Assembly: GCA_019429145.1 (NCBI GenBank)
Contig: JAHYJI010000001.1
Location: forward strand, 2,535-66,534
DNA from: Coriobacteriia bacterium
GTDB lineage: Bacteria > Actinomycetota > Coriobacteriia > Anaerosomatales > SLCP01
DNA length: 64,000 nucleotides
Reading direction: 5' to 3'
Made by a program: the position numbers and the translations under genes. Below are positions 1 to 59,156 of the stretch, piece by piece (the first letter of the stretch is position 1; each line of letters begins with the position of its first letter). The notes beneath the pieces were generated by a model. That model saw only the letters and a program-made list of their open reading frames with translations, had not been told where the DNA came from and ran no database searches.

Positions 1-1250
<1,250 letters not shown>

Positions 1251-3254: not shown

Positions 3255-3974
3255 CTACGGTGTTGGAGTCCCGGGGGTGTCCTCGAGACGCTGCATCTCA
3301 CTCAGTTCTGCACGGACGATGAGGCGATAGGCGGCACTGTAGGGCGGGTGACACGCCGAGAGCGTGAGACTCGGCACGTCGGTCGTGCGCATCACCTCGA
3401 CCTGGTCAGGCGTGACGGTGAACTTCTCGGTGACCTCGTAGGTGTAGCGGCGGTACGGCGAGAGGAAGTGGATGATGTCACCGGGCTCAAGGTCATCGAG
3501 GCGGCGGAAGGGCGCTCCGTACGTGGTCCGGTGCCCCGCGATGCCGACGTTGCCCGTCTCTCCCGGAAGATCGGTGTAGGTAATCCACCCGGGGCCCTTC
3601 TTCAGCTCATCACGTCCGGTGCCGAGGATCACGACTGCATCGAGGTCCATGCCCTCGATCACGAGCCTGCCGAAGATGTCGCCCTTCCCAAGGCCGGCCC
3701 AGTAGGCGACATCTTCTTCTCTCCACGTCTCCCAGCCGGTGAGCTCCGGGTCGGGCTCGTCGAGCAGCCGATCGGGAGAAGGGGCTCCCATCGAGCCGAG
3801 ATCGGCGATCTGGGCTCGAAGCGCACCCTGCTCGCGTCCCGTCACGAAGTCGGTCACGAAGTAGTAGCTCACGAGGCCCAGCGCGACCCCGATGAAGATG
3901 TTTCCGAGCGCGTGCAGCGCGACCCGCGATGCGGGCCGCCGCTCGATTGCGGCGGTCTCAGCCGTGGATGTCAC
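3255..3974 (-). CDS. Sortase (membrane-anchored, class E-like)
   Basis: N-terminal TM helix, a GHRTTYGAPF (His) motif, an LTLSACHP catalytic Cys motif (a TLxTC variant), and a conserved RLIVRA Arg. Confidence 0.8.
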   Translation of the reverse strand: MTSTAETAAIERRPASRVALHALGNIFIGVALGLVSYYFVTDFVTGREQGALRAQIADLGSMGAPSPDRLLDEPDPELTGWETWREEDVAYWAGLGKGDIFGRLVIEGMDLDAVVILGTGRDELKKGPGWITYTDLPGETGNVGIAGHRTTYGAPFRRLDDLEPGDIIHFLSPYRRYTYEVTEKFTVTPDQVEVMRTTDVPSLTLSACHPPYSAAYRLIVRAELSEMQRLEDTPGTPTP

Positions 3975-4090: not shown

Positions 4091-4312
4091 TGAAAGCCGC
4101 ACATCTCCGCAGACTCCCCGCTCAAGGCACAGCACGCCGAAAGACGTGCTTCGCAAAGTCACGGGTCTACCGGAGGGCACGCTCGCCCTCCCACGACAGC
4201 CGGACCGCCGGGTACGAGATCTGGTCGAACCTGCTATCGGCCCGATCCCACCCATGCCACTCGGGAGGGACGGGCCGATGTGCGCACCAGGCTCGCAAGG
4301 GGTGTTCGGCAG

Positions 4313-5020
4313 ATGAACGCACGGATCAAGAGGACCACCAGCGCGATGCGGTTCGCCGCGTTGCTGCTCACCGTAGCTCTTCTTGTGGGAGCTGCTCCCG
4401 CGACGGCCTCGACCGCCGAGATACGCTCGCTCGAGGTCAGCGCCAGGTTCGCATCGTCGCTCGAACCGGAAGCCACACCCGTTACCCCAGCACAGAAGAC
4501 CGGCGCCGACGTTGCCGTGTCCGAGTCCCGCGCCGGGTATACCACGCCGCTCGCAAAGGCCAAGGCACCGCTGCCCAAGCCCGTCGTCAAGCCGGCACCG
4601 GCTCCCGCGCGCAGGTCTGCGGGCAGCACTACTGCAAAGGCCAGCAGCGCACCGAAGGCAAGCAGCGCGCCCGCAAGCTCGAGCGCCCCCAAACCTGCTT
4701 CGAACGCCTCCGCACCCGCTCCCAAGCCGGCTGCGTCCAGCGGGAACACGCTCGCACAAGCGCGCTCGATCCTGGCCTCCCGTATCGCGATGTACCCGAT
4801 CCTCAGGGGTGCGACGGTGGAAATCGGCGATACCAAAGGCAATGCCTCGGCGATCTGCTACTACAAGTCAGGCCGGATCGTCATCAACGCCAACCACAAA
4901 GCGAGTCTCGAGCGAATCATCAACCACGAGATCTGGCACATCATCGACTGGCGCGACAACGGCAAGATCAACTGGGGCGAGAGCGTGCCCCCGAGCAACG
5001 CCGCGGACTTCCGCGGGTAG
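4313..5020 (+). CDS. Secreted protein with Ala/Ser/Pro-rich linker and C-terminal HExxH (putative zinc metallopeptidase-like) domain
   Basis: Signal-peptide-like N-terminus (MNARIKRTTSAMRFAALLLTVALLVGAAPATA), low-complexity KASSAP repeats, and HEIWH near the C-terminus. The start was chosen at the ATG at 4313; the ORF opens at a GTG at 4280. Confidence 0.55.
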   Translation: MNARIKRTTSAMRFAALLLTVALLVGAAPATASTAEIRSLEVSARFASSLEPEATPVTPAQKTGADVAVSESRAGYTTPLAKAKAPLPKPVVKPAPAPARRSAGSTTAKASSAPKASSAPASSSAPKPASNASAPAPKPAASSGNTLAQARSILASRIAMYPILRGATVEIGDTKGNASAICYYKSGRIVINANHKASLERIINHEIWHIIDWRDNGKINWGESVPPSNAADFRG

Positions 5021-5059: not shown

Positions 5060-5137
5060 TGACAGAGCCCCGGCGGGGATAACCCCGCCGGGGCCCCTCA
5101 TCGTCTACACCCGTACGGCGGTAGCCGGAGTACGGGT
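5060..5137 (-). terminator. Repeat A copy 1: two tandem GC-rich hairpins between the convergent HExxH-protein and adhesin genes (U-tract-less terminator module)
   Basis: Hairpin 1 is gccccggcgggg/ataa/ccccgccggggc (5067-5094). Hairpin 2 is acccgtac/ggcggtagccgga/gtacgggt (5109-5137) and overlaps the adhesin stop codon (tta at 5137-5139). It is homologous to 8669-8748. Confidence 0.5.
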
Positions 5138-8100
5138 TAGGCGGCTTTGCGAGAGCGCCTGCGCAGTGCGGTGCCAGTGGCGGCCGCCGCGCCAGCCAGC
5201 GCGAGGAGACCGAGCAGGTCCGCGCCGGTGAAGGGCAGGAATGGCTCCTCCTCGACGGTTACTCTCCACGTGCTGCGATCGTTGTCGGGATTCTGGTCAT
5301 CGGGATGAGTTACCACGACGACGTTGTCGAGGTAGGTGGTCCCATCAGGCATGTTCTCGGAGACGAGCATCTTGTAGGTGATCGTCCGGGAGGCGCCAGC
5401 CGCAAGCGGCTCGGCGAAGGTCCAGGTGATCTGACCGTTGGAGACAACACCGCCGGCAGCATCGACCACGGCAAGGTAGCGCTGATCGAACGTGTCGTCG
5501 ACCACGTAGTCGGAGGCCGCGGCGCTACCGTAGTTGGTGATGACGATCGTGTAGGTGATGGCATCTCCGGGGTCGGCCTTCGTGCGGTCTGCCGACTTCT
5601 TCACCCCGAGATCCGGGAAGCCCAGGAACTCGTCGATGTCCACGAACGCCTCGTCCGTGTCCGTAACCGGCTCGCCCTCAGGGGGAGTTCCGGTCGCTAC
5701 CACGACGTTCGTGGTCGGCTCCGTGATGGCAACCGTCCTCGTGAAGGTCTGCGACTCGCCGGGAGCGAGCTCGTCGATCGTCGCGATGATACCAAGGTGG
5801 TCATCGTCGATGAGAACGGAGGTCAGAGGCACGTTGCCGGTGTTCGTGACGACGAAGGTGTAGGTCACTTCGTCGCCCGCGAGCACGAGCGAGGAGCTCA
5901 CTGACTTCTCGATGTCGATGGCAGGGCTCGAGCCGAAGTAGCTGGAGTCGTCATCGTCATCGACCACATCTTCGCCCTCCGGCGGGTTGCCGACCGCGGT
6001 TCCGACGTTCTCGTACTCGCCCTCTACTGCGATGCCCTCATGCTCGAGCGTCTCACTCTCGCCCGGCGCCAGGACGTCGATAGTGCCGATCAGGCCTTCG
6101 ATGTCGTCGGTGACCTCGATGTCGGTGATTGTCACGTTACCGGTGTTGGTCACCTGGTAGGTCCAGGTGATCGGTGCACCGACAGGGATGTACTCGCCGT
6201 CGGCCCCGTTCGTGAGCTTGACGATCTCGAGTGCCGGGTTCTGCGGCAGCATGACCGTCTCGTCGTCCTCATCGGTCACCGGTGCTTCGTCAGGGCCGTA
6301 GCCGGTGACGAGCGCCTCGTTGTAGAACTCCCCGGCGTCGATGTCTGCCTGTGTGAGGTAGTACACGCCGGTAAAGGTCGTGGCGTCGGTGCCGCCGACG
6401 GCCAGCGAGAACAGCGGGTCACCCGAGACGATGACATCGCCGACCAGGTCGGTGACGCTGACGTTGTAAAGCGTCACGTTGCCGGTGTTGGCCACGGTGA
6501 ACGTGTAGTTGACCGGCTCGCCCACATCGGCGAAGCCGTCAGCGTTGCTGTCGACCCACGTGCCGGACTTGACGATCGAGATCTCCGCGTTCCACGCCAG
6601 CTCGACGGTCTCGTCATCGGTGGCCGGGGCGGACTCATCAGAGTCGGCCGTGGCCACGTTGTAGACAAAGCCGTCGTCGATGTCGTCCTGGTCGACCGCA
6701 TAGGTCGCGGTGTAGGTCCAGGACTCACCGACCTGCAGCAGGCCGTCGCTGTTGCTGTCACCCGAGACGTAGGTGATGGCGCTCAGTCCGGGCAGCGGGT
6801 CGGTGACGCTGATGTTGGAAAGCGTCATGTTGCCTTCGTTGGTCACGACGAACGTGTAGGTGATGAGCTCGCCGGGCTGCGGATAGCCGTCAGCACCGGC
6901 ATCGAACACGCCGGTCTTGACGATCTTGATGACCGGGTTTTGCTCCATGTTGCCGAAGTTGTAGCCGTCGTACTGGAATCCAGGTGCGACGGTGACGGCG
7001 TGATACCCGGTCGCCGGATACGTCTGTGTGTAGCCCGTCTGCTGAATCTCGTAGACGCGAAGTGCGGTCGGACTCTGATTCGGCAGGTAGAAGTAGAGGC
7101 TGTAGGAGCCGTCCTCAAGGGTTGTCGTCTTCTCATCGATGCCCTCGTCGAAGACGCCGTTACCATTGATGTCGACCCAGATCTCCCAGCCTTCGAGGCC
7201 GACCTCATCGCCATCCATGACGCCGTTACCATTCAGGTCTCCCCACTTCATGCCGGTGATAGCGGATCCATACAGGATTCCCTGTGACATGAGTTGGTTG
7301 TCTTCTGACGCTGCGCCGCTCCACTGGTTGCTGCCGACAAGCATCTGATGATAGGGGGCGCCACTTATCCCTCCGGCGCCCATGTCTGGCCCCCACCCGA
7401 TTCCGCTGACGGGAATTGGGTCGAGGCCAACAGCGATATGCCCAGCGTACAGAATCATCACTCTGTCTGCTGCGCCCTCCCACGTGACGGTGAACTTGAC
7501 TGTGCTGTCGCCACTGGTTGAGCCGTAAAGGGCGGGATCGATGCTTACCACAACATTCGAGATGGGAGCGTTTCCGTAGACGTCAATCGTCCGATCGCCG
7601 TATCCGAGCGCCGTCTCGTAGGCCAGCTCCCGCTCAGCAGCAAACGGGCTCTCGGGGACTACGGCCGTAGCGTGGTACGGAAAGTCTGCGGAGGAGTAGT
7701 CCATCCACTTCCAGGAATCGCTCCACACTTGTCCACCGTACGCCTGGGCCGCGTCAATCGCCTGACTCCAACTGGTGATGAAGTCGTACGCGTACTTGCC
7801 GCCCTTGGTGAACTGGTACTCGAAGGTGACATAGCTCTGGGGAATCGAGGTCTCGGCGCCGGTGAGTACCAGTCGCTGCGGAACAGACATGCCTTCAACG
7901 TAGTCTGAGTTCTGATTGTTGAGGGCGCTTCCAATCCACTTCGGGGTCGTGTTCTCGAGTTGCCTGAAATCCCTCTTCGCCTTGCCAGATGTCGCGGCAA
8001 CCTCGACCTCCGCGGGGGCCACGAGCATCGCGCTCATGTCGTCGCCTGCGGGAGCCTTGCTCTTCTTTGCCCCGGGAACTTGGATCTCATCCGCCGGCGC

Positions 8101-8373
8101 AGCCTCTTCGTCCTCGGCTGCAGCCTCTACTTCTTCGGGAGCAGAATCACCCTCTAGTGACGCATCAGCCGGGGCAACAGCTCCCGACGATTCCTCGCTC
8201 TCCTCCGGTACCATCATGCTCTCGATGGCTTCCGGATTACCCTCCTCGGCAAATGACGCGGGTACCGCACCTGCGATACCCGTGAACATCACGACGACAA
8301 CCAGCGTGAGGTACGTCGTGAAAAGCCGGGAGAGCAGTGGCCTACGCCGTAGCGTTCGTGCCATGTCGCTCAT
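5137..8373 (-). CDS. Large cell-wall-anchored surface protein/adhesin: signal peptide, acidic linker, unknown beta-rich domain, SdrD-B/Cna-B-like Ca-binding domain, five DUF11-type repeats, LPFTG sorting signal
   Basis: The C-terminus is LPFTGADLLGLLALAGAAAATGTALRRRSRKAA (LPXTG, hydrophobic stretch, basic tail). It has five copies of the ..TYTFVVTNTGNV.L..V.V.D.. motif (DUF11 / conserved repeat domain). GDLNGNGVMDGDE and DINGNGVFDEG are SdrD-B-like. The start is ATG 8373 or, with better GAGGGG spacing, ATG 8364; the ORF opens at GTG 8466. Confidence 0.85.
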   Translation of the reverse strand: MSDMARTLRRRPLLSRLFTTYLTLVVVVMFTGIAGAVPASFAEEGNPEAIESMMVPEESEESSGAVAPADASLEGDSAPEEVEAAAEDEEAAPADEIQVPGAKKSKAPAGDDMSAMLVAPAEVEVAATSGKAKRDFRQLENTTPKWIGSALNNQNSDYVEGMSVPQRLVLTGAETSIPQSYVTFEYQFTKGGKYAYDFITSWSQAIDAAQAYGGQVWSDSWKWMDYSSADFPYHATAVVPESPFAAERELAYETALGYGDRTIDVYGNAPISNVVVSIDPALYGSTSGDSTVKFTVTWEGAADRVMILYAGHIAVGLDPIPVSGIGWGPDMGAGGISGAPYHQMLVGSNQWSGAASEDNQLMSQGILYGSAITGMKWGDLNGNGVMDGDEVGLEGWEIWVDINGNGVFDEGIDEKTTTLEDGSYSLYFYLPNQSPTALRVYEIQQTGYTQTYPATGYHAVTVAPGFQYDGYNFGNMEQNPVIKIVKTGVFDAGADGYPQPGELITYTFVVTNEGNMTLSNISVTDPLPGLSAITYVSGDSNSDGLLQVGESWTYTATYAVDQDDIDDGFVYNVATADSDESAPATDDETVELAWNAEISIVKSGTWVDSNADGFADVGEPVNYTFTVANTGNVTLYNVSVTDLVGDVIVSGDPLFSLAVGGTDATTFTGVYYLTQADIDAGEFYNEALVTGYGPDEAPVTDEDDETVMLPQNPALEIVKLTNGADGEYIPVGAPITWTYQVTNTGNVTITDIEVTDDIEGLIGTIDVLAPGESETLEHEGIAVEGEYENVGTAVGNPPEGEDVVDDDDDSSYFGSSPAIDIEKSVSSSLVLAGDEVTYTFVVTNTGNVPLTSVLIDDDHLGIIATIDELAPGESQTFTRTVAITEPTTNVVVATGTPPEGEPVTDTDEAFVDIDEFLGFPDLGVKKSADRTKADPGDAITYTIVITNYGSAAASDYVVDDTFDQRYLAVVDAAGGVVSNGQITWTFAEPLAAGASRTITYKMLVSENMPDGTTYLDNVVVVTHPDDQNPDNDRSTWRVTVEEEPFLPFTGADLLGLLALAGAAAATGTALRRRSRKAA

Positions 8374-8420
8374 CCCCTCATCTTCCGGACGCCCCCAAAC
8401 CCTCGTGGGACCGGTCGATG

Positions 8421-8460
8421 AGAGAAAACAAAGACCGGCTCGTCTGTGACGGGCCGGTCT
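8421..8460 (-). terminator. Intrinsic terminator-like hairpin plus U-tract inside the adhesin 5' leader
   Basis: The minus strand reads AGACCGGC-CCGTCACAGACGA-GCCGGTCT followed by TTGTTTTCTC. It ends about 50 nt upstream of the adhesin start codon. Confidence 0.5.
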
Positions 8461-8528
8461 CACCACTGACTCCCCGCCGACGCATCGGTGACCGAACGCG
8501 TGTCGACGGATCTATGCCTCCCGAAAGG
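8451..8528 (-). repeat. Repeat B copy 1: conserved structured leader element (unassigned family)
   Basis: About 70% identical in blocks to 9068-9145 (gggccggtctcacca, tccccgccg, ggtgaccga, gatgcctccc). It has an internal 8-bp stem (minus strand CCGTCGAC/GTCGGCGG) with loop UCGGUCACC. The stem has a G-U pair on the minus strand and a C-A mismatch on the plus strand. Confidence 0.55.
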
Positions 8529-8595
8529 CGCCCGACGCATAGTCGGGCCCACGTATGAGTTTGTTAATGGACGTCATGTCCGGCTACCTAGAGTG

Positions 8596-8601
8596 ACTAT
8601 A
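8596..8601 (-). promoter_or_regulatory. Candidate -10 hexamer TATAGT for the adhesin leader transcript
   Basis: The minus strand reads gggTATAGTcac. The equivalent position in the second repeat unit reads gggTATATTctc (9176-9181). I recognised no clear -35. Confidence 0.3.
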
Positions 8602-8635
8602 CCCACTCCAGGGGGCTCCTCGGGCATGAAACCAG

Positions 8636-8652
8636 TCATCCATAGGTATGAG
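8636..8652. promoter_or_regulatory. Conserved dyad box TCATCC-ATAG-GTATGA, copy 1
   Basis: This 17-nt box recurs at 9215-9231 with one mismatch. Both copies sit 33-34 nt upstream (minus-strand sense) of the TATAGT/TATATT hexamers. Confidence 0.35.
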
Positions 8653-8668
8653 CGAGGTAGGAATGATA

Positions 8669-8748
8669 TGACAGAGCCCCGACGGGGAGAACCCCGCCGG
8701 GGCCCCTCATCGCACCAAGTCTGCAGGGCGGTAGCCGGAGTGCAGACT
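8669..8748 (-). repeat. Repeat A copy 2: same two-hairpin module as 5060-5137, with stem 2 entirely replaced by a different complementary pair
   Basis: 8669-8712 differs from 5060-5103 at 2 of 44 nt. The loop ggcggtagccggag is identical in both copies. The stem arms are agtctgca/tgcagact here and acccgtac/gtacgggt in copy 1. Confidence 0.55.
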
Positions 8749-8974
8749 GGGCGATCCTGTTGGCCGGCCGGATCGTCCGATGGCGCCACCTGAGTCCAGC
8801 TTCGGCCGTAGCGCTATAACACCACTCGCACGTCGCCGCCGCAATACCACATCTGCCCCCACGCGGATCGCGGTGCCGGCGCGCAGCCGCATCGACCAAA
8901 CTGCCCGTGTGAATGGAGCGTGGTTCTGCGAACGATGCAGCCGGAAGAAAGGCCAGTTCAGCGAGCATGCCGAA

Positions 8975-9040
8975 AGGCACAGACTTTGGTCAGCCCCCCT
9001 ACCGCACACCAAGTCAGGCAAGCCGGCGTCGAATCGGCCT
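8975..9040 (-). repeat. Degenerate third A-like fragment
   Basis: cccccctaccgcacaccaagtcaggcaagccgg resembles cccctcatcgcaccaagtctgcagggcggtagccgg of copy 2. Here accaagtc pairs with the upstream gactttggt instead. Confidence 0.3.
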
Positions 9041-9067
9041 TCTACCGCAACAGCCGGCTTGTCCCCC

Positions 9068-9145
9068 GAGGGCCGGTCTCACCATTGGCTCCCCGCCGGG
9101 ATCCTGGTGACCGATGTGATCCGGCGGATCGATGCCTCCCCTAAG
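9068..9145 (-). repeat. Repeat B copy 2 (degenerate terminator arm, no U-tract)
   Basis: It aligns with 8451-8528. The internal stem is kept with different bases (CCGCCGG/CCGGCGG). The distal hairpin is weakened and is followed by GTTGCGG rather than a T-run. Confidence 0.5.
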
Positions 9146-9175
9146 CAACCGCAGAGTCGCGGCGTCTTCCACGAG

Positions 9176-9231
9176 AATATACCCGCGATGCGGACAGCGG
9201 CGCACCAATCCTCATCATCCATCGGTATGAG
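9176..9231 (-). promoter_or_regulatory. Second copy of the dyad box (9215-9231, TCATCC-ATCG-GTATGA) plus -10-like TATATT (9176-9181)
   Basis: Read directly. The box-to-hexamer spacing is the same as in copy 1. Confidence 0.3.
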
Positions 9232-9239
9232 AGTGTCCC

Positions 9240-9264
9240 GCCGCCCGATACACCGGTCGGCGGC
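9240..9264 (-). terminator. Possible lon terminator hairpin (no U-tract)
   Basis: An 8-bp stem with one bulge (gccg(c)ccga / tcggcggc) begins 7 nt after the lon stop codon. Confidence 0.3.
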
Positions 9265-9270
9265 CTTTGC

Positions 9271-11634
9271 TCAGGTCTTACGCTTCTTCATGGTCGGGCG
9301 ACACGACTTGACCAGAGCGTTCATGAGGACCTCGTCCATGGTGGCGACCGGGATGATCTTGAGCTCCTCGCGCACGTGCCCGGGCATGAGTTCCAGGTCG
9401 CGCACGTTCTCCTTCGGGATGAGGACCGTCCTGAGTCCCGCGCGGTGAGCGGCGAGCAGCTTCTCCTTCAGGCCGCCGATGGGCAGAACCCGGCCCCTCA
9501 GGGTGATCTCGCCGGTCATCGCGATGTCGCGGCGCACCGGGCAGCCAGTGAGCACCGAGGCAAGGGCAGTGGCCATCGTGATTCCCGCCGAGGGCCCGTC
9601 CTTGGGAATGGCGGCTGCAGGCACGTGGATGTGCATGTCGAACTTGTCGGCGAAGTCCGGTTCGATCTCGAGCTCGGTAGTGCGGGTCCGGATGTACGAC
9701 ACCGCCGCTTGCGCCGACTCCTTCATCACGTCGCCGAGGTGACCGGTGAGCGTGAGACCGCCCTTGCCCGGCATCTTGGTGGCCTCGATGGTGATGACGT
9801 CGCCGCCCACCTCGGTCCACACGAGGCCGGTTGCGGCTCCTATCTCATCCTTCTCCTCTGCAAGTCCGAACGAGAACTTGGGCGGCCCTAGATACTTGTG
9901 TAGCGTGCGGCCGGTGACCCTCGTCTTGCTCTTCTTCCCTTCGACGACCTTGCGGGCGACCTGCCTGCAGACCATCGCGATCGTGCGCTCGAGGTTGCGG
10001 ACCCCCGCTTCGCGCGTGTACCGGCGGACCATCTCGCTGAGCGCGGAGCCATCGAACTCGAGCTTGCCCCTGGTCAGCCCGTGTTCCTTCAGCTGCTTGG
10101 GGATGAGGTACTGCTCGGCGATGTGGACCTTCTCCTCCTCGGTGTACCCGGGGAAGTGGATGACCTCCATCCGGTCCCGCAGCGCCGGAGGTATCGGGTC
10201 GAGCAGGTTCGCCGTCGTGATGAACATCACGTTCGACAGGTCGAAGGGCGCCTCCAGGTAGTGGTCCTGGAAGGCGAAGTTCTGCTCGGGATCGAGCACC
10301 TCGAGCAGCGCCGACGTCGGATCGCCCCGGAAGTCCATGCCGACCTTGTCGATCTCGTCCATCATGAAGACCGGGTTGTTGGTGCCCACCTGGCTGATCG
10401 ACTGGATGATGCGTCCCGGCAGCGCGCCCACATACGTGCGCCGGTGACCGCGGATCTCGGCCTCATCGCGAACTCCGCCGAGCGACATGCGGATGAATTC
10501 GCGCCCCAGAGAACGCGCGATCGATTTGCCGATCGACGTCTTACCGACACCGGGCGGCCCGACGAAGCACAGGATCGGACCGCGCATCCGGTCGGTGAGC
10601 TTGTGGACCGCGAGGTACTCGAGCACCCGCTCCTTGACCTTCTCGAGTCCGTAGTGGTCCTCGTCAAGGATCTGCTGGGCCTCCACGAGGTCCAGCTTCT
10701 CCTCGGACTCGGCGTTCCACGGCAGGCCGATCAGCCAGTCCAGATAGGTACGGATCACGCTCGTTTCCGCCGCCGCTGGTGGCATCTTCTCGAGGCGCCC
10801 GAGTTCCTTGAGGGCCTTCTCCTCGACCCGCTCGGGCATCGCCGCCTCGGCGATCTTCTCCTTGTACTCGTCGACCTCGGCCTGGACCTCGTCGAGGTGA
10901 CCGAGTTCCTGCTGGATGGCCTTGAGCTGCTCGCGCAGGAAGTACTCCCGCTGCGTCTTGGTCATCTGATCCTTCACGCGACTCTGAATCTTGGAACCCA
11001 GTTCGAGCAGCTCGATCTCCTTGCGCAGGAAGGTGCTCGCGCGCTCGAGGCGTGCGAACGGCTCGAGCGCCTCGAGGATCTCCTGCTTCTCCTCGACCTT
11101 CAGATTGAGGTGGAAGGCGATGAAGTCGGCGAGGCGCCCGGGCTCCTCGATCGCAGCGGCCGCCATCTGCACTTCCTGCGGGATGGGCTTGCCGAGCTCC
11201 GATGCCCGGCCGAAGTCGTGGACGAGTGCGCGCATGAGCGCCTCGGTCTCCATGTCGACCTCTTCGGACTCCTCGATCGGCTCGATGCGTACGAGGTAAT
11301 ACGGGTCGGTCTGCACGAACTCGACGATGCGTATCCGCTGCTGGCCCTCGACGAGTGCCTTGGCGGTGCCGTCGGGCAACTTGAGCTCCTGCATGATGGA
11401 GGCCACGCACCCGATCTCGTAGATGTCGTCCGGCCCCGGGTCCTGGGTCTCTGCATGCTTCTGCGTGACGAGCGCCACCAGATGCCCCTCGCGCATCGAC
11501 TCCTCGAGTGCATTGATCGAGCGCTCGCGACCCACGAACAGCGGCACGACCAGGTTCGGGAAGAGTATGAGGTCCCTGAGTGGAATCAGGGGCAGCACAT
11601 CGGGTATGGCACGAACGTCGCTTTGCTGAGACAT
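9271..11634 (-). CDS. lon: ATP-dependent Lon protease (LonA)
   Basis: 787 aa with an N-terminal LON substrate-binding domain, Walker [10 protein letters not shown], and the catalytic serine motif PKDGPSAGI. Confidence 0.97.
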
Positions 11635-11757
11635 CGCGGCGTGGTTCCTTTCGTCGTCTCCGTGCGATAATCATTCTGCCCTAATCTTCTGCACCATACA
11701 CGACACACCTACCCTCTCATCGCAGGTAGGTGCCGATACCGAACCGTTGGAGCGCAC

Positions 11758-13815
11758 GTGACGCCCACCGAACACCGGCCGGAGTGGCCCATCGGCCGCA
11801 GGGCCGTGACCATCATCCTGTCCGCCTGCCTCGTCGCCGGCATCGCGTTGCCATACCCGGGAGCATCGGCTGCACCCACGGCAGAACTGGCACCCCTCAG
11901 CATGCAACCGGACGGCGTCACCGTGGACACCGGACCGCTCTCGGTTCCGGCGGATGGCTCGTTCCGGATCGGCGTGGACGTCGATGTCCCCGAGCCGACC
12001 TCCTACCTCGAGGTCCGCTTGCAGATCCACCGGCCCACGGGACGCCTGCTGTTCCAGCGGACCGAGATCCGGAGCGATGTCGAGACCGGCACGGTGGATG
12101 TCGAGTTCGGCCGCGAGCTGGCCGACCTGGGGCTGCGGCCCGACGCGTACCCCTACGAGATCAGGGTGCGCATGCAGGCCGACGAAGTCGTAGAAAGGGT
12201 CGCGACCGGGTTCCTTCTGGTGCACGAGCCCGATCCCGGGGTCACCCCGGTCGCCCTTGCGGTCCGCATCTCCTCGACCCCGCGGTTCGACCCGCAGGGC
12301 CATCTCGTGACCGATCCCGCGCGCTCCACCGCCGCACTCGAACAAGCCGAGGCGTTGGCGCGAGCGGTACTCGACGACCCTTCGCTGCGTCTCACTCTGG
12401 CGATCGCACCCGTCACCCTCGACGAGTGGTCCCGGATCTCCCAGGGCTTCCTGCTCGCCGAGACCGAGGAGGGCCTCGTCGAGGTAGCCGCGGACGAACC
12501 CGGTCCGGCCAGGTACGCCGCTGCACTCGATACACTGCGCGAGGCGCTGGCGACCGGTCGTCTCGAACTCCTCGACGTGCCCTACGCCGACCCCGACATC
12601 GCCGCGCTCGCGGCCACCGACCGCCTCGGGGACCTTGCCGCGCACTACTCGCTGGGGCTCTCCACGTACCTTGCAGCGCTGGAGACCTCGCCTTCGGCAG
12701 GCACCGCGGTGTCACACGATCAGATTCCCGCTGCAGCGCTGGACGTGCTTGGAGAGCGTGGCATCCAGTTCGCGCTGATCGCTCCCCGGGACGATCAGAC
12801 GACAGGCGCGACCACCGAGCTGGCCTCCGAGCGGACCGCCGGGGGCCTGTACCGCATCGAGGGCTCGAGAGTGCGCGCGCTCGTGCTCCACCCCGAAGTC
12901 TGCGAGGCGCTCGAACAAGGGGCCGCCTCCGCGGGCACGCTGCTCGCGTTCCGCCACGCGATCTCCGAGAACGCAGCAATGCCCATCGTCACCCTCACCG
13001 ACCTCGGCCCGGGGCGCTCCGGCTCGATCGAATCGGTCATCGAGCTTGCGGGACTCCTCAACGGGGCCGAGTGGGCACGAGTGACAACCGCGTCGGATGC
13101 CGTCGGCATCCCGGGGCGACAGACGTACGCTCCCCCGGAGACCATCGAGATGACTCCGACCCCCCCGGCCGGATACTGGGGCGAGGTCGCCGAGGCACGG
13201 CGCTATGCGTCCGCGCTCGAGTACGCAGCCGGACCGAGCGACCCTGACGCGCGCCTGGCCGTGGAGGCTTCGCTCGTTGCCCAGAGTTCGAGATGGGCAG
13301 GCGCGGACGGGCGCTGGAGCATGGCCGACCGCGGGCGCGCATTCGCCTCCACGGCGCAGCGCCTTTCCAGCGGCGTACTCGATCAGGTCATCCTCACCGC
13401 AAAGGACGTTACCCTTGCCGGTCCGAAGGGCGACGTGCCCATCAGCATCGAGAACGGGTCCGCCAAGGACCTGACGGTAGAACTGAGGATGCACGCAGAC
13501 GACATGCAGATCGCCGGCGATGGACAACAGATCATCGTCCTGCGGCCGCAGGAGAACTTCCACACGGTCGCCGTCGACTTGCGCTCCGCGCTTGCCGACA
13601 GACTCGTTACCGAAGTGTGGGCCGGTGAGGTGATGCTGGCCTCGAGCAGCAGCGTGGTGCGCGCCTCGTATCTCGACCGCCTTGCGGTGGTCGGTGGTGT
13701 CATCGTCATTCTCCTCGGCCTGCTTCTCTTTATCAGAAGACGCGTTCGTGCGGCCGATGCTGATAAGATGCCCAAGGAAGCTCATGAGGGGCCCGAAGAG
13801 GGAACGACGCCGTGA
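11758..13815 (+). CDS. Large secreted protein with C-terminal TM anchor (possibly the actinobacterial Rv3909/DUF6049-like family)
   Basis: GTG start. It has an N-terminal signal/TM (AVTIILSACLVAGIALPYPGASA) and a C-terminal TM plus basic tail (VVGGVIVILLGLLLFIRRR). The family guess rests on size, topology and the position upstream of trxB-trxA, recalled from mycobacterial synteny. Confidence 0.55.
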   Translation: MTPTEHRPEWPIGRRAVTIILSACLVAGIALPYPGASAAPTAELAPLSMQPDGVTVDTGPLSVPADGSFRIGVDVDVPEPTSYLEVRLQIHRPTGRLLFQRTEIRSDVETGTVDVEFGRELADLGLRPDAYPYEIRVRMQADEVVERVATGFLLVHEPDPGVTPVALAVRISSTPRFDPQGHLVTDPARSTAALEQAEALARAVLDDPSLRLTLAIAPVTLDEWSRISQGFLLAETEEGLVEVAADEPGPARYAAALDTLREALATGRLELLDVPYADPDIAALAATDRLGDLAAHYSLGLSTYLAALETSPSAGTAVSHDQIPAAALDVLGERGIQFALIAPRDDQTTGATTELASERTAGGLYRIEGSRVRALVLHPEVCEALEQGAASAGTLLAFRHAISENAAMPIVTLTDLGPGRSGSIESVIELAGLLNGAEWARVTTASDAVGIPGRQTYAPPETIEMTPTPPAGYWGEVAEARRYASALEYAAGPSDPDARLAVEASLVAQSSRWAGADGRWSMADRGRAFASTAQRLSSGVLDQVILTAKDVTLAGPKGDVPISIENGSAKDLTVELRMHADDMQIAGDGQQIIVLRPQENFHTVAVDLRSALADRLVTEVWAGEVMLASSSSVVRASYLDRLAVVGGVIVILLGLLLFIRRRVRAADADKMPKEAHEGPEEGTTP

Positions 13816-14171
13816 AGAAGATCCTCATCATCGCACTTGTAGTGGCGCTCGCCGTGACCTTCGTCCACGATCTGGGTGCGTACGTGAGCACACGGCGAGC
13901 GGTCGTCGAAGCTGCGCGCGATGCCGCTGACGTGGCTGCGGGACTCGCTTCGAGTGGACGCGACGCAGCTGCACGCGCCGCCGCGGACAAGGCGCTCGAG
14001 CGCGATGTCACCGTCTACCTGTACAACCAAGATGAGACGCGAGTCGAGGTGTGGGCGAAGAAGGAGCTCGAGGGTACGTGGGTCTACCAGCCCGTTACGG
14101 GGCTCATCGAGGGCAGACCCGCCGATCAGCCGCCCGTGCTCGAGTACTACGCATCGACACCGATCCGGTAA
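13812..14171 (+). CDS. Small membrane-anchored hypothetical protein (119 aa)
   Basis: The GTG start overlaps the previous stop (GTGA). N-terminal TM (KKILIIALVVALAVTFV). GC3 is high. Confidence 0.5.
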   Translation: MKKILIIALVVALAVTFVHDLGAYVSTRRAVVEAARDAADVAAGLASSGRDAAARAAADKALERDVTVYLYNQDETRVEVWAKKELEGTWVYQPVTGLIEGRPADQPPVLEYYASTPIR

Positions 14172-14193
14172 GAGACTGGAGATCCGCCCGCTG

Positions 14194-15312
14194 ATGAAGA
14201 TCATCGTGATCGATACAAACGTGCTCCTTGCGGATCCGCAGTCTCTGCTGGCGTTCCCGGATTCGGAGGTTGTGATTCCGGAGACCGTCCTCGGCGAGTT
14301 GGACAAGCTCAAGACCTCGCGCGTCGATCCGGACCTCCGGTTCAGAGGACGTGAGGTCTCCCGGATCCTCTTCGAGCTGTCCGAGCAGGGCAGTCTCATC
14401 GGCGGCGTCGACCTGCCGGATGGTGGGCGGCTGCGCGTCGTCCCGCTCGACTCCGACGTGCCCACGCCCGAGGGACTCACCACACGCAACGCTGACGATC
14501 GCATCCTCGCCGTGGCGTTTCAGCTGTGCCACTCGGGTGGCTGCACCGACGGTCTGACCATGGTGACCAACGACCTCAACATGCTGCTCAAGGCGCAAAC
14601 CTACGGTCTGGAGGTCGAGCGCTACGCCGACGGGCCCGACGGGGGCTTCGCGAAGCGCTACATCATCAGGCCCTTCCAGCGCTACCGGGTGCCCCTGGGG
14701 ATCCTCGGGACCTCGCTTGCCGTTTTCGCAGCGATCATCGTTCTCGTGATCTGGGGCCCGGGGGCCCGCGACTCGGCTCCGTCGGCGGTGCCGGTTGAGT
14801 TCCGAGACCAGCTCCCGGCCGCGCAGCAACGGATCCTCGACTACCTCACCATCCTCGAGAGGGACGAGGCCAACCTCGATACCCGCCTCTCGCTCGCAAA
14901 CCTCTACTACGAACTGCGTCTGAGCACCGGGGACATCCGATACTCATCGCTCGCGGTAAGGCATTATGAGCGATACCTGGAGCTTCGGCCCGAGTCATCG
15001 GACGTGCGCGCCGACCTCGCCGCCTCGTACTTCTACGGGGGCCAGACCGATCGCGCGATCCAGGAGGCAGCGCGCATCCTCGAACAGGATGCCGAACACG
15101 TGCAGGCGACGTTCAATCTCGGCGTCTTCTACTGGCGTGGCAGGCAGGACTTCGCGGCCGCGGCCACGCAGTTCGCCAGGGTGATCGAACTGACGGCGAA
15201 CGGGGACGAGCAGGCGCAGTCCGTCAACCGCGAGGCGACCGCTGCGCTCGAACAGGTGCGCCAGGAGGCTGCGGACGCCGGTCAGCCACTTCCCGAAGGA
15301 GGGACCTTCTAG
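14194..15312 (+). CDS. PIN-domain nuclease fused to a TM helix and a TPR-repeat domain
   Basis: The N-terminus MKIIVIDTNVLL...VIPETVLGELD...NADDRILAVA...VTNDLNMLLKA carries the four acidic PIN positions. There is a TM at LGILGTSLAVFAAIIVLVIW, and the C-terminal ~190 aa has TPR-like A..Y/F periodicity. Confidence 0.7.
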   Translation: MKIIVIDTNVLLADPQSLLAFPDSEVVIPETVLGELDKLKTSRVDPDLRFRGREVSRILFELSEQGSLIGGVDLPDGGRLRVVPLDSDVPTPEGLTTRNADDRILAVAFQLCHSGGCTDGLTMVTNDLNMLLKAQTYGLEVERYADGPDGGFAKRYIIRPFQRYRVPLGILGTSLAVFAAIIVLVIWGPGARDSAPSAVPVEFRDQLPAAQQRILDYLTILERDEANLDTRLSLANLYYELRLSTGDIRYSSLAVRHYERYLELRPESSDVRADLAASYFYGGQTDRAIQEAARILEQDAEHVQATFNLGVFYWRGRQDFAAAATQFARVIELTANGDEQAQSVNREATAALEQVRQEAADAGQPLPEGGTF

Positions 15313-38810: not shown

Positions 38811-40601
38811 TCAGTCCGGGGCGATCATGACCCTGTCGCGACCGAGCTCCTTGGAGCGGTAGAGCGCCCGGTCGGCCGCCTCGAGCAGCCGGTCCGCGTC
38901 GGAAGCCGACGGCCCCGCTGACGCCAGCCCTACAGAGATCGTGACCGACACCTCGCCCTCACGGTCAGGATCGACCACCGCGACGCGCTCGCCGGCGATG
39001 ACCCCGCGCAGCTTCTCGGCGACCGCATAGCCTGCGGTCTTACCGACGTTGGGCAGGATGAGTCCGAACTCGTCGCCACCGAACCGTGCGGGAATGTCCG
39101 TCTCGCGTACCGTCTCGCGTACCACGGTGCCGATCCTCTCCAGGACGGCGTCGCCTGTGGTGTGTCCGTACCCGTCGTTGACCGCTTTGAAGCCGTCCAG
39201 GTCGATCATGAGCAGCGTGAGGGGAGCGCCATAGCGCTGGTAGCGGGCAAACTCCGTGGCAAGCCGCTCCGAGAAGACCCTCCGGTTCCACAGCCCGGTG
39301 ACCGGGTCCAGCGTGGCCGACTCTTCGAGCGCCTCGTTGTTGCGCAGGAGGCGCTTGTGCTCGAGCGGGAAGCACATGTCCCAGCTCGAGTCTCCCGAGA
39401 GCACGGCGATCGCGTGGTCGATGCAGGCGTCGTAGCCACACGCCCCGCAGTCGAGGACCTGGGTGCGGTCGGCGAACTCGCCCTCTGCGAGGCACGCGTC
39501 GATCTGCTCGTCGGAGTAGGCGCGCGTGGGGACGGGCGATGCGCTGAATGCGCGGTCCAGACCCAGCGCGGGCAGGTGCGCGAGCACGGAGCGGGTGTCC
39601 ACCCCGGCAGGTGCGGCAGCCGGGGACCCCACGGTCTCGGTGAATAGTCTGCGTTTCGCGTAGACGGACAGCTCCGAACCGGTCGCAGGACCATCGACGC
39701 AGCCGTCGCAGTAGAGCATGTCGACGATCAGCGGCCCGGTCTCACCGCGATCGATCGCACCAAGTAGCTCGCCGATGCGCTCCGGTCCCCGGACCGTCAC
39801 GACATCCCTCGCGGTCATGTCGCGTGCGGCAAGCGTCGTACGGGGAAAGCCGTCTGTCAGCGAGATCTGCTTGTCGAGGCGCGGCCTCGGGACGCGGGAG
39901 GCCGCCGGAAACTCCGCAGGCATGCGGGCATCGGGCCATGCGATCAGCCGCTTCAGCTCGTCGAAACCGATGGCGACGTCGACCGCGCCTGCGAACGCAG
40001 GATCGTCGATCTCGTCCTTGCGCGCGTAGCACGGCGAGACGTAGACCACAGCCGTGTCGGCCGGGTAGAGCTCTTTGACGAGGAGCGCCTGGGCGATGTA
40101 GGGAGGGACGACGGGCGCGAGCGAATCGACGAGGGAGGGATGGTAGCGGGTCACCCATGCCGTGGCCACCGGACACGTCGAACGCAGAACGACCCAGCCG
40201 CGGGCGGCGGCGTGCAGCTGCTCGTAGACGGCCGCGACCATCTCCTCGCCGAGCAGCGTCGTCTCGGTCCCGTGAAAACCCGCGGCGTCCAGCGCCCACT
40301 CCAACTCGTCGAAGGACATCGGGTGCATCGCCGCGAGAAACTCCGTGGCCAGCACGGCGACCACCGGGCGGCCGGAGTCCAGCAGCTCGGCGACCCGCGG
40401 GAGGTCGTCGCGCACGGTGTGGCCCCCGCTACCGCACGCAGTGACGCAGTCGCCGCACTTCACGCACCGTTGGGGGATGACCTCCGAGCGCCGGTTGACG
40501 ACCCGTATCGCCTGCACCGGACAGACACGCACGCACCCCCAGCATTCACGACAAGAGTCGGGCGGGTTGCCGATGAGGAACTCGGTGGCGATCTCGCTCA
40601 T
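38811..40601 (-). CDS. Ferredoxin / [FeFe]-hydrogenase H-domain-like (HydS-like sensory) / Cx2Cx4Cx16C Fe-S domain / GGDEF diguanylate cyclase fusion (596 aa)
   Basis: From the ATG at 40601: CRECWGCVRVCP and CVKCGDCVTAC; STCPVATAW (C143); SPCYARKDE (C191); DMLYCDGCVDG (C298/C301); CGACGYDAC-x16-C (C385-C410); and RETD-x5-GGDEF (508-512). The ATGA overlap with the upstream QueT-like gene supports this start. Confidence 0.8.
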   Translation of the reverse strand: MSEIATEFLIGNPPDSCRECWGCVRVCPVQAIRVVNRRSEVIPQRCVKCGDCVTACGSGGHTVRDDLPRVAELLDSGRPVVAVLATEFLAAMHPMSFDELEWALDAAGFHGTETTLLGEEMVAAVYEQLHAAARGWVVLRSTCPVATAWVTRYHPSLVDSLAPVVPPYIAQALLVKELYPADTAVVYVSPCYARKDEIDDPAFAGAVDVAIGFDELKRLIAWPDARMPAEFPAASRVPRPRLDKQISLTDGFPRTTLAARDMTARDVVTVRGPERIGELLGAIDRGETGPLIVDMLYCDGCVDGPATGSELSVYAKRRLFTETVGSPAAAPAGVDTRSVLAHLPALGLDRAFSASPVPTRAYSDEQIDACLAEGEFADRTQVLDCGACGYDACIDHAIAVLSGDSSWDMCFPLEHKRLLRNNEALEESATLDPVTGLWNRRVFSERLATEFARYQRYGAPLTLLMIDLDGFKAVNDGYGHTTGDAVLERIGTVVRETVRETDIPARFGGDEFGLILPNVGKTAGYAVAEKLRGVIAGERVAVVDPDREGEVSVTISVGLASAGPSASDADRLLEAADRALYRSKELGRDRVMIAPD

Positions 40602-41185
40602 CGCTCGGCCGACCCGCCGAGAAGACCGGCCACCGGTGTGCGCCGCAGGAAGAGGGCGAGCGGCACTCCCAGACCGTAGATGACAACCGCCTGACTTGCG
40701 AAGATCACAACCACCCCGATGAGATACGCGGCGAGCCAGCCCGTGGCGGGGTCGAGACCGAAGAGCGATTCCTGGCCCAAACCCAGGGCAGCGAGAAGGA
40801 CCGGCAGGTAGGCAGGAACGATGAACGCGTTGGCTACGACGGGCCCGGCGAGCGCAACGAGTAGTCGGCCCCGGAAGTGCCACGTCCACCACGCGCCGAT
40901 CAGAGTCGCCAGCGAGCCGAACACGACGTCGAGTAGCCCGACGGGGCCGAGCTGGGCGACCAGTGACGCGTTCGCGATGCCGGTACCCAGTGCGAGCCCG
41001 GGAATCGCAGCCGGAGTGAACAACGCCAGCACAGTCAAGGCCTCACTGATGCGCAGTTGGACAGGCCCCCATCCGAGTTGCGCCGGCATCTGAAGCACCG
41101 CGAGCGTGACGGCTGCGTGGACGGCGGCGATCACGCCGGCCTGCGCGACGGAGCGCGTCCCTCTCGGTGCGGACCTTCCTGACAC
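40598..41185 (-). CDS. QueT-like (queuosine-precursor ECF S-component family) membrane protein
   Basis: About 5-6 TMs. The motif QLRISEALTVLALF and the later LLDVVFGSLATLIGA match my recollection of the QueT family. GTG start 3 nt after the kinase stop. Confidence 0.6.
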   Translation of the reverse strand: MSGRSAPRGTRSVAQAGVIAAVHAAVTLAVLQMPAQLGWGPVQLRISEALTVLALFTPAAIPGLALGTGIANASLVAQLGPVGLLDVVFGSLATLIGAWWTWHFRGRLLVALAGPVVANAFIVPAYLPVLLAALGLGQESLFGLDPATGWLAAYLIGVVVIFASQAVVIYGLGVPLALFLRRTPVAGLLGGSAER

Positions 41186-47278: not shown

Positions 47279-47380
47279 GCCGGGTATCCCACAGGGGAAC
47301 GCGCCCCTTCGGTTCGACCCATCGCGCCCGTCACCGCGTGCCCCTCTCTCGCGCGTTCCGACCAGACCATTCTAGCATCG

Positions 47381-53447: not shown

Positions 53448-53560
53448 CAACGCCCCCGAGCGGGACCCGGACGCTCGGCAGAGGACGCTTATGGCTGCTT
53501 CCTTCCGGATCTGACCAGGTTCACGCCGTACCGCCGTCCGGACCCCGCTCGGGGGCGTCA
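53448..53560 (-). ncRNA. ffs: Signal recognition particle RNA (small/4.5S type)
   Basis: The minus strand contains CCUGGUCAGAUCCGGAAGGAAGCAGCCAUAAG, the conserved SRP domain IV motif. The ends pair extensively (GCCCCCGAGCGGGGUCCGGACG with CGUCCGGGUCCCGCUCGGGGGC). Its position upstream of dnaX-ybaB-recR is classic. End coordinates are accurate to about 5 nt. Confidence 0.8.
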
Positions 53561-59000: not shown

Positions 59001-59156
59001 GGATGCACACCCGAAAGCGCCCCACATGACCCGTTGTTCCGCTGTTCAAGCATGGTATGCGGGTTGCCGATACTCTCTCCAGGGAAGAATCGGGTTCCCG
59101 CGCGAACGCTGCGCGGAGTCTCCGCGCATGGATACGATTGCGAGAGGGGGGATCGC

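Follow-up and report, generated by a model that had tools for sequence, protein, structure and literature searches.

In Clostridioides difficile, class II riboswitches for cyclic di-guanosine monophosphate (c-di-GMP) are ON switches that drive the sortase substrates CD2831 and CD3246, whereas a class I riboswitch is an OFF switch on ZmpI, a zinc protease that releases both proteins (PMC6366702). Tandem c-di-GMP-II riboswitches are found ahead of surface-anchor genes (COG4932) in Paraclostridium, where doublets as well as triplets are documented (PMC9481103), and in Bacillus thuringiensis the c-di-GMP-I riboswitch Bc2 is located upstream of the collagen adhesion protein gene cap (PMC4933901; summarised in PMC6366702). 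Here we analyze a locus of a Coriobacteriia bacterium (assembly GCA_019429145.1), using a stretch of 64,000 nucleotides (nt) from contig JAHYJI010000001.1, hereafter called the window, to whose coordinates all positions refer unless another locus is named. On its minus strand, two copies of a class II-like aptamer, A (distal) and B (proximal), precede a gene for a surface adhesin with an LPXTG sorting motif. The sequence and its comparison with related loci, designated below by L numbers, make it probable that copy B is the transcriptional ON switch of the adhesin gene, that copy A is an orphan, and that the molecule sensed is c-di-GMP or a closely related one.

Both copies belong to the c-di-GMP-II-GAG family. 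When positions 7800-9800 were scanned with all 4227 Rfam models, the c-di-GMP-II-GAG riboswitch aptamer (RF03169, gathering score 40 bits) matched copy A at 9148-9062 (minus strand, 67.0 bits, E = 1.1e-12) and copy B at 8530-8443 (minus strand, 58.7 bits, E = 1.4e-10), in both cases over the full length of the model (1-86), and a separate scan of the whole window returned the same two matches together with a c-di-GMP-I aptamer at 4116-4212 (plus strand) and a signal recognition particle (SRP) RNA. RF03169 was the top model within clan CL00127 for both copies, the weaker matches from the same clan being set aside, and it was likewise the best of the clan for all 27 aptamers put to Rfam (two from the window and 25 from related loci); canonical c-di-GMP-II (RF01786) was the best model for none of these 27, and the GAG model scored above both the canonical and the GCG models. 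Among the other Rfam families scanned against 7800-9800, only chance-level matches were obtained for the spacer and the 3'-untranslated-region (3'-UTR) module that lie between the copies, the top one being ctRNA_pGA1 (19.7 bits, E = 0.68). A 22-base degenerate pattern of the aptamer core was found twice in the window, against 0.00 matches expected. Judged by these models, the element represents no new RNA class but a variant of the c-di-GMP class II aptamer that has already been catalogued. Variant classes defined by altered binding-site nucleotides, c-di-GMP-II-GAG among them, were reportedly described by Weinberg et al. (PNAS, 2017), who are said to have left the ligand open; the name GAG reportedly stands for three binding-site nucleotides (G, A and G) that replace the canonical ones. 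An earlier sequence-only reading of this DNA had proposed a riboswitch-type leader, which the RF03169 matches and the conservation of the architecture in relatives bear out, and the Rfam search that it suggested yielded the two matches above the gathering score. Its statement that the element fits no known riboswitch, c-di-GMP-II included, is overturned by the membership of RF03169 in the c-di-GMP-II clan.

No structural difference was seen between the window copies and RF03169, with which they share the helices P2 and P3, inner pairs of the closing helix P1, a pseudoknot linking the P3 loop with the 3' tail, and the core GGGAGGC...CGGyCRCC...GAGCCAnUGGYGAGACCG. In aptamer B (8443-8530, minus strand), P1 is formed by 8523-8520/8453-8450, P2 by 8518-8516/8470-8468, and P3 by CCGUCGAC (8509-8502) with GUCGGCGG (8481-8474), in which all eight pairs form, one of them G.U. 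The pseudoknot of this copy joins the P3 loop CGGUCACC (8494-8487) to GGUGAGACCG in 8464-8455. Aptamer A (9062-9148, minus strand) is conserved in L118, a metagenome-assembled genome (MAG) labelled Anaerosomatales, an order of Coriobacteriia, which is 95% identical to window positions 8067-14408 and contains both copies. Its P3 (CCGCCGG/CCGGCGG, 9127-9121/9099-9093) forms seven of eight pairs and differs from that of copy B by two changes, U.G to C-G and A-U to G-C, its pseudoknot, again of CGGUCACC with GGUGAGACCG, lies at 9113-9106/9083-9074, and 9 of the 11 model pairs of P1 form. P2, flanked by a conserved A and by GA, reads GGC/GCC in copy A, GGC/GUC in copy B (one G.U) and GGU/GCC in copy B of L118.

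The same structure is supported by comparison across genomes. Searching one genome per species with the degenerate core pattern, we matched at least 120 loci, mostly from MAGs of Chloroflexota (Limnocylindria), Thermoleophilia, Acidimicrobiia, other Actinomycetota and Coriobacteriia, so that Actinomycetota are among the lineages in which the pattern scan met the family. Fifty-five diverse aptamers from different genomes were then aligned by MAFFT, the alignment not being fitted to any structure. In this set, P3 shows double-sided changes at all eight pairs with 93% of cells paired; the three-base-pair (bp) helix P2, whose positions are partly fixed by the search pattern, is 98.8% paired; and support for P1 is limited to the inner four to five pairs. 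The pseudoknot (loop CGGyCRCC with 3' tail GGYGAGACCG) is 99% paired throughout the family, and one of its pairs (columns 50-79) is AU in 41 sequences and GC in 14, with zero exceptions. The covariation score was 0.36, compared with 0.15 in shuffles (none of 500 reached the observed value) and ~0.10 with slid partners. Because the P3 loop is not part of the search pattern, its conservation and covariation constitute independent evidence, and the same is true of the pseudoknot pairing, since the nested Rfam model cannot score a pseudoknot. A covariance model of our own, built from the 55-aptamer alignment, gave copy B 71.7 bits and found 160 copies in 120 of the pattern loci plus the window, often two to three per locus on one strand. 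The element occurs in at least three phyla and is always oriented towards the downstream gene, at a fixed short distance. As a separate observation, arrays are present in MAGs of Chloroflexota and Acidimicrobiia, with two to three GAG-variant aptamers on the same strand, 0.6-1.5 kb apart, each before its own small secreted protein (L011 2460-3923, L084 2463-5079, L045 177-2628, L064 and others).

Copy B is sense-oriented in the 5' UTR of the adhesin gene and overlaps its expression platform. The block GGGGAGUCAGUGGUGAGACCGGCCC follows the P3 stem, and further on comes a predicted intrinsic terminator (8421-8460, minus strand), in which AGACCGGCCCGUC (8460-8448) and GACGAGCCGGUCU (8444-8432) form 12 pairs and one C.A mismatch around the 3-nt loop ACA, followed by the U-tract UUGUUUUCUCU (8431-8421) with eight U in 11 nt; a GC-rich stem-loop followed by a U-tract is thus present in the sequence. 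The hairpin has an energy of -20.6 to -21.3 kcal/mol (RNAfold), and the minimum free energy (MFE) fold of the whole leader holds P3 together with the terminator (z = -2.7). The pseudoknot 3' strand (G at 8459 and CCG at 8457-8455) and the P1 3' strand (8453-8450) together make up the 5' arm of this hairpin (8460-8448), and the terminator and aptamer folds are therefore mutually exclusive. Given that the terminator (-20.6 kcal/mol) outweighs P1 plus P2 (about -2 kcal/mol) and the pseudoknot duplex (about -8.4 kcal/mol) and is also the fold held by the MFE structure, we infer that termination is the default state; by fixing the pseudoknot and P1, a ligand should bring about read-through, which would make the element an ON switch. 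Without ligand, the segment GAGACCGGCCCGUC would pair with downstream sequence to give the terminator of -21 kcal/mol and its U-tract, and transcription would halt ~50 nt before the adhesin start codon. With ligand, which family membership and gene context suggest is most likely c-di-GMP or a close relative, GAGACCGGCCCGUC would be held in the aptamer as the 3' strand of both the P3-loop pseudoknot and P1, the terminator would be blocked, and the adhesin mRNA would be completed.

Among the nearest relatives, the terminator is retained in L118, L046, L105, L089 and L031 at -19 to -24 kcal/mol, and its distal stem shows a compensatory change among relatives (CGUC/GACG to CGUG/CACG). A hairpin with the 5' arm GAGACCGGCCC and a U-rich tail recurs in about two dozen examples from Thermoleophilia, Actinomycetes and Coriobacteriia. 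In Chloroflexota a Shine-Dalgarno sequence is found ~15 nt past the aptamer; in Acidimicrobiia the ribosome-binding region would be masked by a hairpin of CCUGUCCC...GGGAUAGG. The adhesin gene itself (5137-8373, minus strand) encodes 1078 residues with five DUF7507 and two DUF11 domains (Pfam), a TIGR01451 match (NCBIfam) and the sorting motif LPFTG. Its first ATG, at 8373, lies ~48 nt beyond the U-tract, and a second in-frame ATG at 8364, an alternative start, has better spacing from the GAGGGG Shine-Dalgarno sequence; both are conserved in relatives. Much of what the sequence-only reading had described here stands: on reading the minus strand from 9400 to 8200, we located the TATAGT hexamer, the 8-bp stem, the loop, the hairpin and the U-tract exactly where it had placed them, its ~50 nt between U-tract and ATG agree with our count, and its proposal that the 5' arm of the terminator lies within the conserved element, giving exclusive folds, holds in that this arm is the 3' part of the aptamer and is conserved in relatives. 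The stem and loop that it drew were right, the pseudoknot CGGUCACC/GGUGAGACCG was missed, and the conservation and covariation that it proposed seeking in related genomes are found in the 55 homologues.

Sequences resembling a promoter precede each aptamer. We compared six leaders (window B, window A, L118, L046, L105 and L089), in all of which the -10-like GGGTA(T/A)A(G/T)T is invariant and CTCATAC..nnGGrTGA is conserved further upstream. For copy B, the predicted -10 element is GGGTATAGTC (8595-8604, minus strand; hexamer TATAGT at 8601-8596), and the upstream motif CTCATACCTATGGATGA (8636-8652, minus strand) lies ~35 nt before it and is repeated at 9231-9215; no -35 consensus was found by a scan of 8200-9400. 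The corresponding promoter-like unit of copy A (9175-9231, minus strand) comprises CTCATACCGATGGATGA (9231-9215) and GGGTATATTC (9184-9175). A repeat finder likewise reported the 17-nt motif CTCATACCnATGGATGA and the -10-like GGGTATAkTC as duplicated ahead of each aptamer copy. CTCATACCnATGGATGA is likely a transcription-factor site, in which case the adhesin would also be under protein control. A partial third copy of this motif is present at 8564-8553 (minus strand).

The adhesin mRNA is predicted to begin with the leader motif GGUAGCCGGAC (8578-8588, minus strand), which is conserved in L118, L046, L105 and L089, and the leader hairpin P0 (GCCCGAC...GUCGGGC, 8530-8549, minus strand) abuts the 5' side of aptamer B. 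P0 is part of the MFE fold, carries a compensatory change in L105 (GCCUGAC/GUCAGGC) and has a hairpin as its counterpart in L089. The start of the leader, GGUAGCCGGAG, is exactly complementary to CUCCGGCUACC, which forms the conserved loop of a hairpin with a covarying stem; this hairpin is found in the 3' UTR of the adhesin gene (hairpin and terminator at 5060-5136, minus strand, loop at 5130-5120), a region shared with the convergent gene described below, and again between the two aptamers. The leader and loop sites fall at 8588-8578, 8740-8730 and 5130-5120 on the minus strand of the window, at 1146-1156, 976-986 and 4667-4677 in L046, and at 4480-4490 and 4314-4324 in L105; in L089 the leader motif has a C to U change, and no matching partner hairpin was found in 8 kb of that locus. 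This complementarity could reflect an RNA-RNA contact between mRNA ends or inverted DNA sites flanking promoter B. It is, together with the orphan copy A, one of the loose ends of the locus.

Copy A shares the 900-nt intergenic gap between the Lon protease gene and the adhesin gene with copy B, on the same strand and 618-619 nt away from start to start. Whereas seven intact relatives have terminators of -19 to -24 kcal/mol, the terminator homologue of copy A (9042-9080, minus strand), although it shares 80% identity with the B segment, is decayed, reaching only -10.7 kcal/mol and lacking a U-tract. Where a gene would be expected, a non-coding spacer of 290 nt follows (8752-9041, minus strand), whose open reading frames (ORFs) have a GC content at third codon positions (GC3) of 0.58-0.65, compared with 0.79-0.88 in real genes, and which differs from the 95%-identical L118 by single-base indels that would throw any reading frame out of register. 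The presence of a gene, or of the remains of one, after copy A was considered and rejected, there being no GC3 signal, no similarity to the adhesin and the frame-shifting indels; nor did the spacer resemble the small LPXTG protein of L046. The cis-regulatory position of copy B is thus not shared by copy A, whose terminator has decayed and behind which no coding ORF lies. Within the spacer, which is otherwise 95-98% identical to L118, a patch of ~100 nt (8870-8770, minus strand) is only ~70% identical and contains indels.

The spacer is followed by a copy of the adhesin 3'-UTR module (8661-8751, minus strand), consisting of the hairpin with loop CUCCGGCUACC (8751-8715) and a strong terminator hairpin (8712-8669), which ends unit A just ahead of promoter B with a fold energy of -54 kcal/mol. 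Positions 8712-8669 are 95% identical over 44 nt to 5103-5060, and the stem of the module hairpin covaries in L118, L046 and L105. In L046, a more distant relative than L118, an upstream aptamer with an intact terminator is followed by a 238-residue LPFTG protein, the 3'-UTR module, the promoter motifs, a second aptamer and the large adhesin; in L121, a single aptamer stands directly ahead of the adhesin. The small L046 protein (154-870, plus strand) is acidic, has the sorting-signal-like motifs SLPFTE and SLPFTG, and gave no match in Pfam or NCBIfam. We therefore prefer to see in copy A what is left, as an orphan, of the front of a lost small-LPXTG cassette, rather than one half of a tandem leader: its aptamer, promoter motifs and 3' terminator module would have survived, while the platform terminator and the gene decayed. 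The sequence-only reading had taken the second copy for a repeat that keeps the inner stem with compensatory changes. The copy and its two stem changes are as it described, and what falls is the idea of a mere repeat, given a separate unit with promoter-like motifs of its own, a decayed terminator and no gene.

Convergent to the adhesin gene lies a second c-di-GMP-associated unit. A canonical c-di-GMP-I aptamer (RF01051, 47.2 bits, gathering score 35) at 4116-4212 (plus strand), after which no clear terminator was found, precedes a gene at 4313-5020 (plus strand) whose secreted product comprises a signal peptide, a low-complexity linker rich in Ala, Pro and Ser, and a C-terminal domain of ~90 residues, which carries the HExxH motif HEIWH within an invariant HE(I/V)WHIIDWRDNG. 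By sequence the protein had no relative in Pfam, NCBIfam or the sequences of the PDB, and homologues of the domain, a tiny and uncharacterised family, number ~30 among 5.8 billion proteins. When its AlphaFold2 model (predicted local distance difference test score 85) was compared by Foldseek, two minimal zinc peptidases, selecase and jannalysin, ranked first and other zincins came next; these matches are weak (E = 0.02-0.1, template modelling score ~0.55) and consistent, and the domain is predicted from the model to adopt a minigluzincin-like (selecase/jannalysin) fold. On the far side of the aptamer, a sortase gene (PF04203, E = 2e-31) occupies 3255-3974 (minus strand). The c-di-GMP-I aptamer is coupled to the HExxH gene in L046 and L121 as well, and L118, L046 and L121 all keep the order of Lon gene, GAG aptamer and adhesin gene, then, converging on these, the HExxH gene with its c-di-GMP-I aptamer, and finally the sortase gene. 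A distant HExxH homologue (P0018 in L122) lies in a context that has neither adhesin nor riboswitch, and the module is therefore confined to the closer relatives.

The sequence-only reading had also called the window rich in c-di-GMP enzymes, which agrees with the proteins found. A 743-residue protein (38814-41042, minus strand), in which domains of the 4Fe-4S and iron-only-hydrogenase large-subunit-like kinds are joined to a GGDEF diguanylate cyclase domain at the C-terminus, is possibly a redox- or H2-sensing cyclase; a HAMP-GAF-HD_5 protein of the HD-GYP type is encoded at 45785-47371 (minus strand) and a triple-PAS GGDEF-EAL protein at 59001-61640 (plus strand). The SRP RNA of the whole-window scan, of the bacterial small type, is located at 53455-53550 (minus strand, 64.1 bits).

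The genes behind the GAG variant in other genomes speak to its output. By a crude heuristic, signal-peptide-like N-termini were called in 95 of the 120 ORFs directly after aptamers (79%), compared with 84 of 559 control ORFs from the same loci (15%; Fisher p ~1e-42), and at least 16 of the downstream ORFs have LPXTG-like C-termini. The Pfam matches of the downstream genes are heterogeneous: besides SdrD_B, SpaA, collagen, subtilase and beta-helix domains, they extend to SRPBCC, SnoaL, methyltransferases and extracytoplasmic function (ECF) sigma factors. With about four fifths of these genes encoding secreted or anchored proteins, the range of plausible ligands is narrowed.

Several observations weigh against copy B as a c-di-GMP-responsive transcriptional ON switch. 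Its P1 has only four pairs (CGGG/CCCG), with six outer model pairs flagged as non-canonical by Rfam, the U-tract UUGUUUUCUCU is interrupted and the terminator stem contains the C.A mismatch. Consensus scans of 8200-9400 reported neither a sigma-70 promoter nor a terminator. The terminator was most likely missed because of the mismatch, which lies 4 bp from the loop, and in view of this mismatch and of actinobacterial promoters that have no -35 element, we regard these negatives as a limit of the scans and not as absence. One more hairpin, CUCAUCGACCGG...CCGGAAGAUGAG (8420-8374, minus strand), lies past the terminator but before the start codon and overlaps the GAGGGG Shine-Dalgarno region, and control may therefore not be purely transcriptional. 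Copy A, which we read as a remnant, outscores copy B, is conserved in L118 and may still do something. In Chloroflexota, the genes that follow the aptamer encode SRPBCC, SnoaL and methyltransferase proteins, a set atypical of c-di-GMP regulons, and the literature on the GAG and GCG variants yielded bioinformatic mentions only, with no later ligand validation found.

The last two points bear directly on the ligand. It is conceivable, if doubtful, that the RNA and its ON mechanism are as described and the GAG variant senses something else, for instance a different cyclic dinucleotide or a linear degradation product, so that the adhesin and the HExxH protein would answer two different signals. 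The separation of RF03169 from canonical c-di-GMP-II in Rfam, with both copies scoring best on the variant model, points this way, as do the missing ligand validation and a regulon that is in part atypical for c-di-GMP, with ECF sigma factors besides the SRPBCC, SnoaL and methyltransferase genes; moreover, the same locus already has a canonical class I aptamer for the neighbouring gene, so a different second sensor would add information. On the other hand, c-di-GMP turnover enzymes are encoded in the window, the regulon consists mainly of secreted and LPXTG surface proteins, a classic c-di-GMP output, and the layout copies that of C. difficile, where classes I and II both sense c-di-GMP and two classes evidently can coexist. 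This parallel is our main, circumstantial argument that the variant ligand is c-di-GMP or is used alike, and by this analogy c-di-GMP is a plausible ligand of the GAG variant. Extending the other view, one may speculate with similar reserve that the GAG aptamer reads a nucleotide other than c-di-GMP and that the module integrates two second messengers, variant class II switching adhesins on and canonical class I controlling the secreted zincin, while copy A could gate a non-coding RNA (ncRNA) that pairs with the adhesin leader.

Other readings concern the relation of the two copies. That they work in tandem within a single long transcript started at promoter A, with a steeper, pseudo-cooperative response of the kind described for tandem c-di-GMP-II riboswitches, seems unlikely to us: the shared strand and the spacing of 619 nt would allow it, as would the weak U-tail of the terminator between the copies, the many related loci with two to three copies on one strand and the c-di-GMP-II doublets and triplets documented before surface-anchor genes (PMC9481103), but each copy has its own conserved upstream motif and -10 element, the -54 kcal/mol module of 3' UTR and terminator separates them, L046 has a complete 238-residue LPXTG gene in between, L121 manages with one copy, the platform of copy A has decayed, and in other lineages each copy precedes its own ORF. 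We likewise give little credence to a trans-acting role in which copy A gates an ncRNA of ~500 nt (~9170-8665) whose loop CUCCGGCUACC pairs with the leader 5' end GGUAGCCGGA. Aptamer A is indeed intact and outscores B, the first 170 nt of the spacer are ~98% identical to L118, and the loop and leader are perfectly complementary over 10-12 nt in the window, L118, L046 and L105, with a covarying stem and a fixed loop. The same hairpin, however, simply belongs to a 3' UTR, in L046 that of the upstream gene and elsewhere that of the adhesin gene, so that no copy-A RNA is needed; inverted repeats of 10 nt are common by chance in a GC-rich region of 1 kb (11 were listed); the leader motif of L089 is changed, with no matching loop within the 8 kb examined; and as DNA the motifs could be inverted protein-binding sites on either side of promoter B. 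Hardly credible, finally, is a dispersed repeat of the repetitive extragenic palindrome (REP) or miniature inverted-repeat transposable element (MITE) kind, or a protein-dependent attenuator, with no ligand sensing. Two copies in one intergenic region and several at many loci elsewhere might suggest a repeat, whereas the match to a structured aptamer model with strand-specific G.U pairs, the covariation through P3 and the pseudoknot, the occurrence in at least three phyla always towards the downstream gene at a fixed short distance, and the want of terminal repeats or target duplications all speak against this reading, which the model match, the covariation and the position before genes already effectively refute.

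If copy B is indeed the ON switch of the adhesin gene and copy A its orphaned neighbour, the locus resembles each of the known systems in some respects and departs from it in others. Like Cdi-2-3 (CD2831) and Cdi-2-1 (CD3246) of C. difficile, copy B would turn expression on through terminator avoidance before a sortase-anchored adhesin, and a class I riboswitch with a secreted zinc metalloprotease lies next to it, so that the adhesin/protease/sortase logic is the same, with the role of the HExxH protein being predicted here. The C. difficile aptamers are canonical class II, whereas here the GAG variant, with a putative ligand, takes their place; the class I element of C. difficile is an OFF switch, whereas the one here has no clear terminator downstream; and the minigluzincin-like domain of ~90 residues has no sequence relation to ZmpI/PPEP-1 (M34). 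The Paraclostridium tandems likewise place two aptamers of the same class on one strand before the gene for a surface-anchored protein, but here the copies are 619 nt apart with promoter-like motifs of their own and a terminator module between them, and the relatives point to two adjacent gene cassettes instead of one tandem leader. Bc2 is also an ON switch with read-through into an adhesin gene, differing in its class I aptamer and in its phylum.

Since the element joins a known family, the novelty is modest. New relative to the RF03169 record are the host, a Coriobacteriia of the Anaerosomatales type, the clean platform formed by the terminator, the second copy, which has been orphaned, and the conserved association with a zincin gene under probable c-di-GMP-I control. 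The locus is an unusually clean and short example: its terminator platform is strong, its target gene is defined, and a few kb away a canonical c-di-GMP-I aptamer precedes a gene with a probable functional link, and as the GAG variant is apparently without a verified ligand in the literature, it offers a compact test case. The orphaned copy A, for its part, documents the decay of riboswitch cassettes. The conserved module of adhesin, mini-zincin and sortase suggests that the reciprocal circuit of C. difficile, which makes an anchor protein and represses the protease that releases it, also arose in an unrelated phylum, where both the aptamer variant and the fold of the protease differ.

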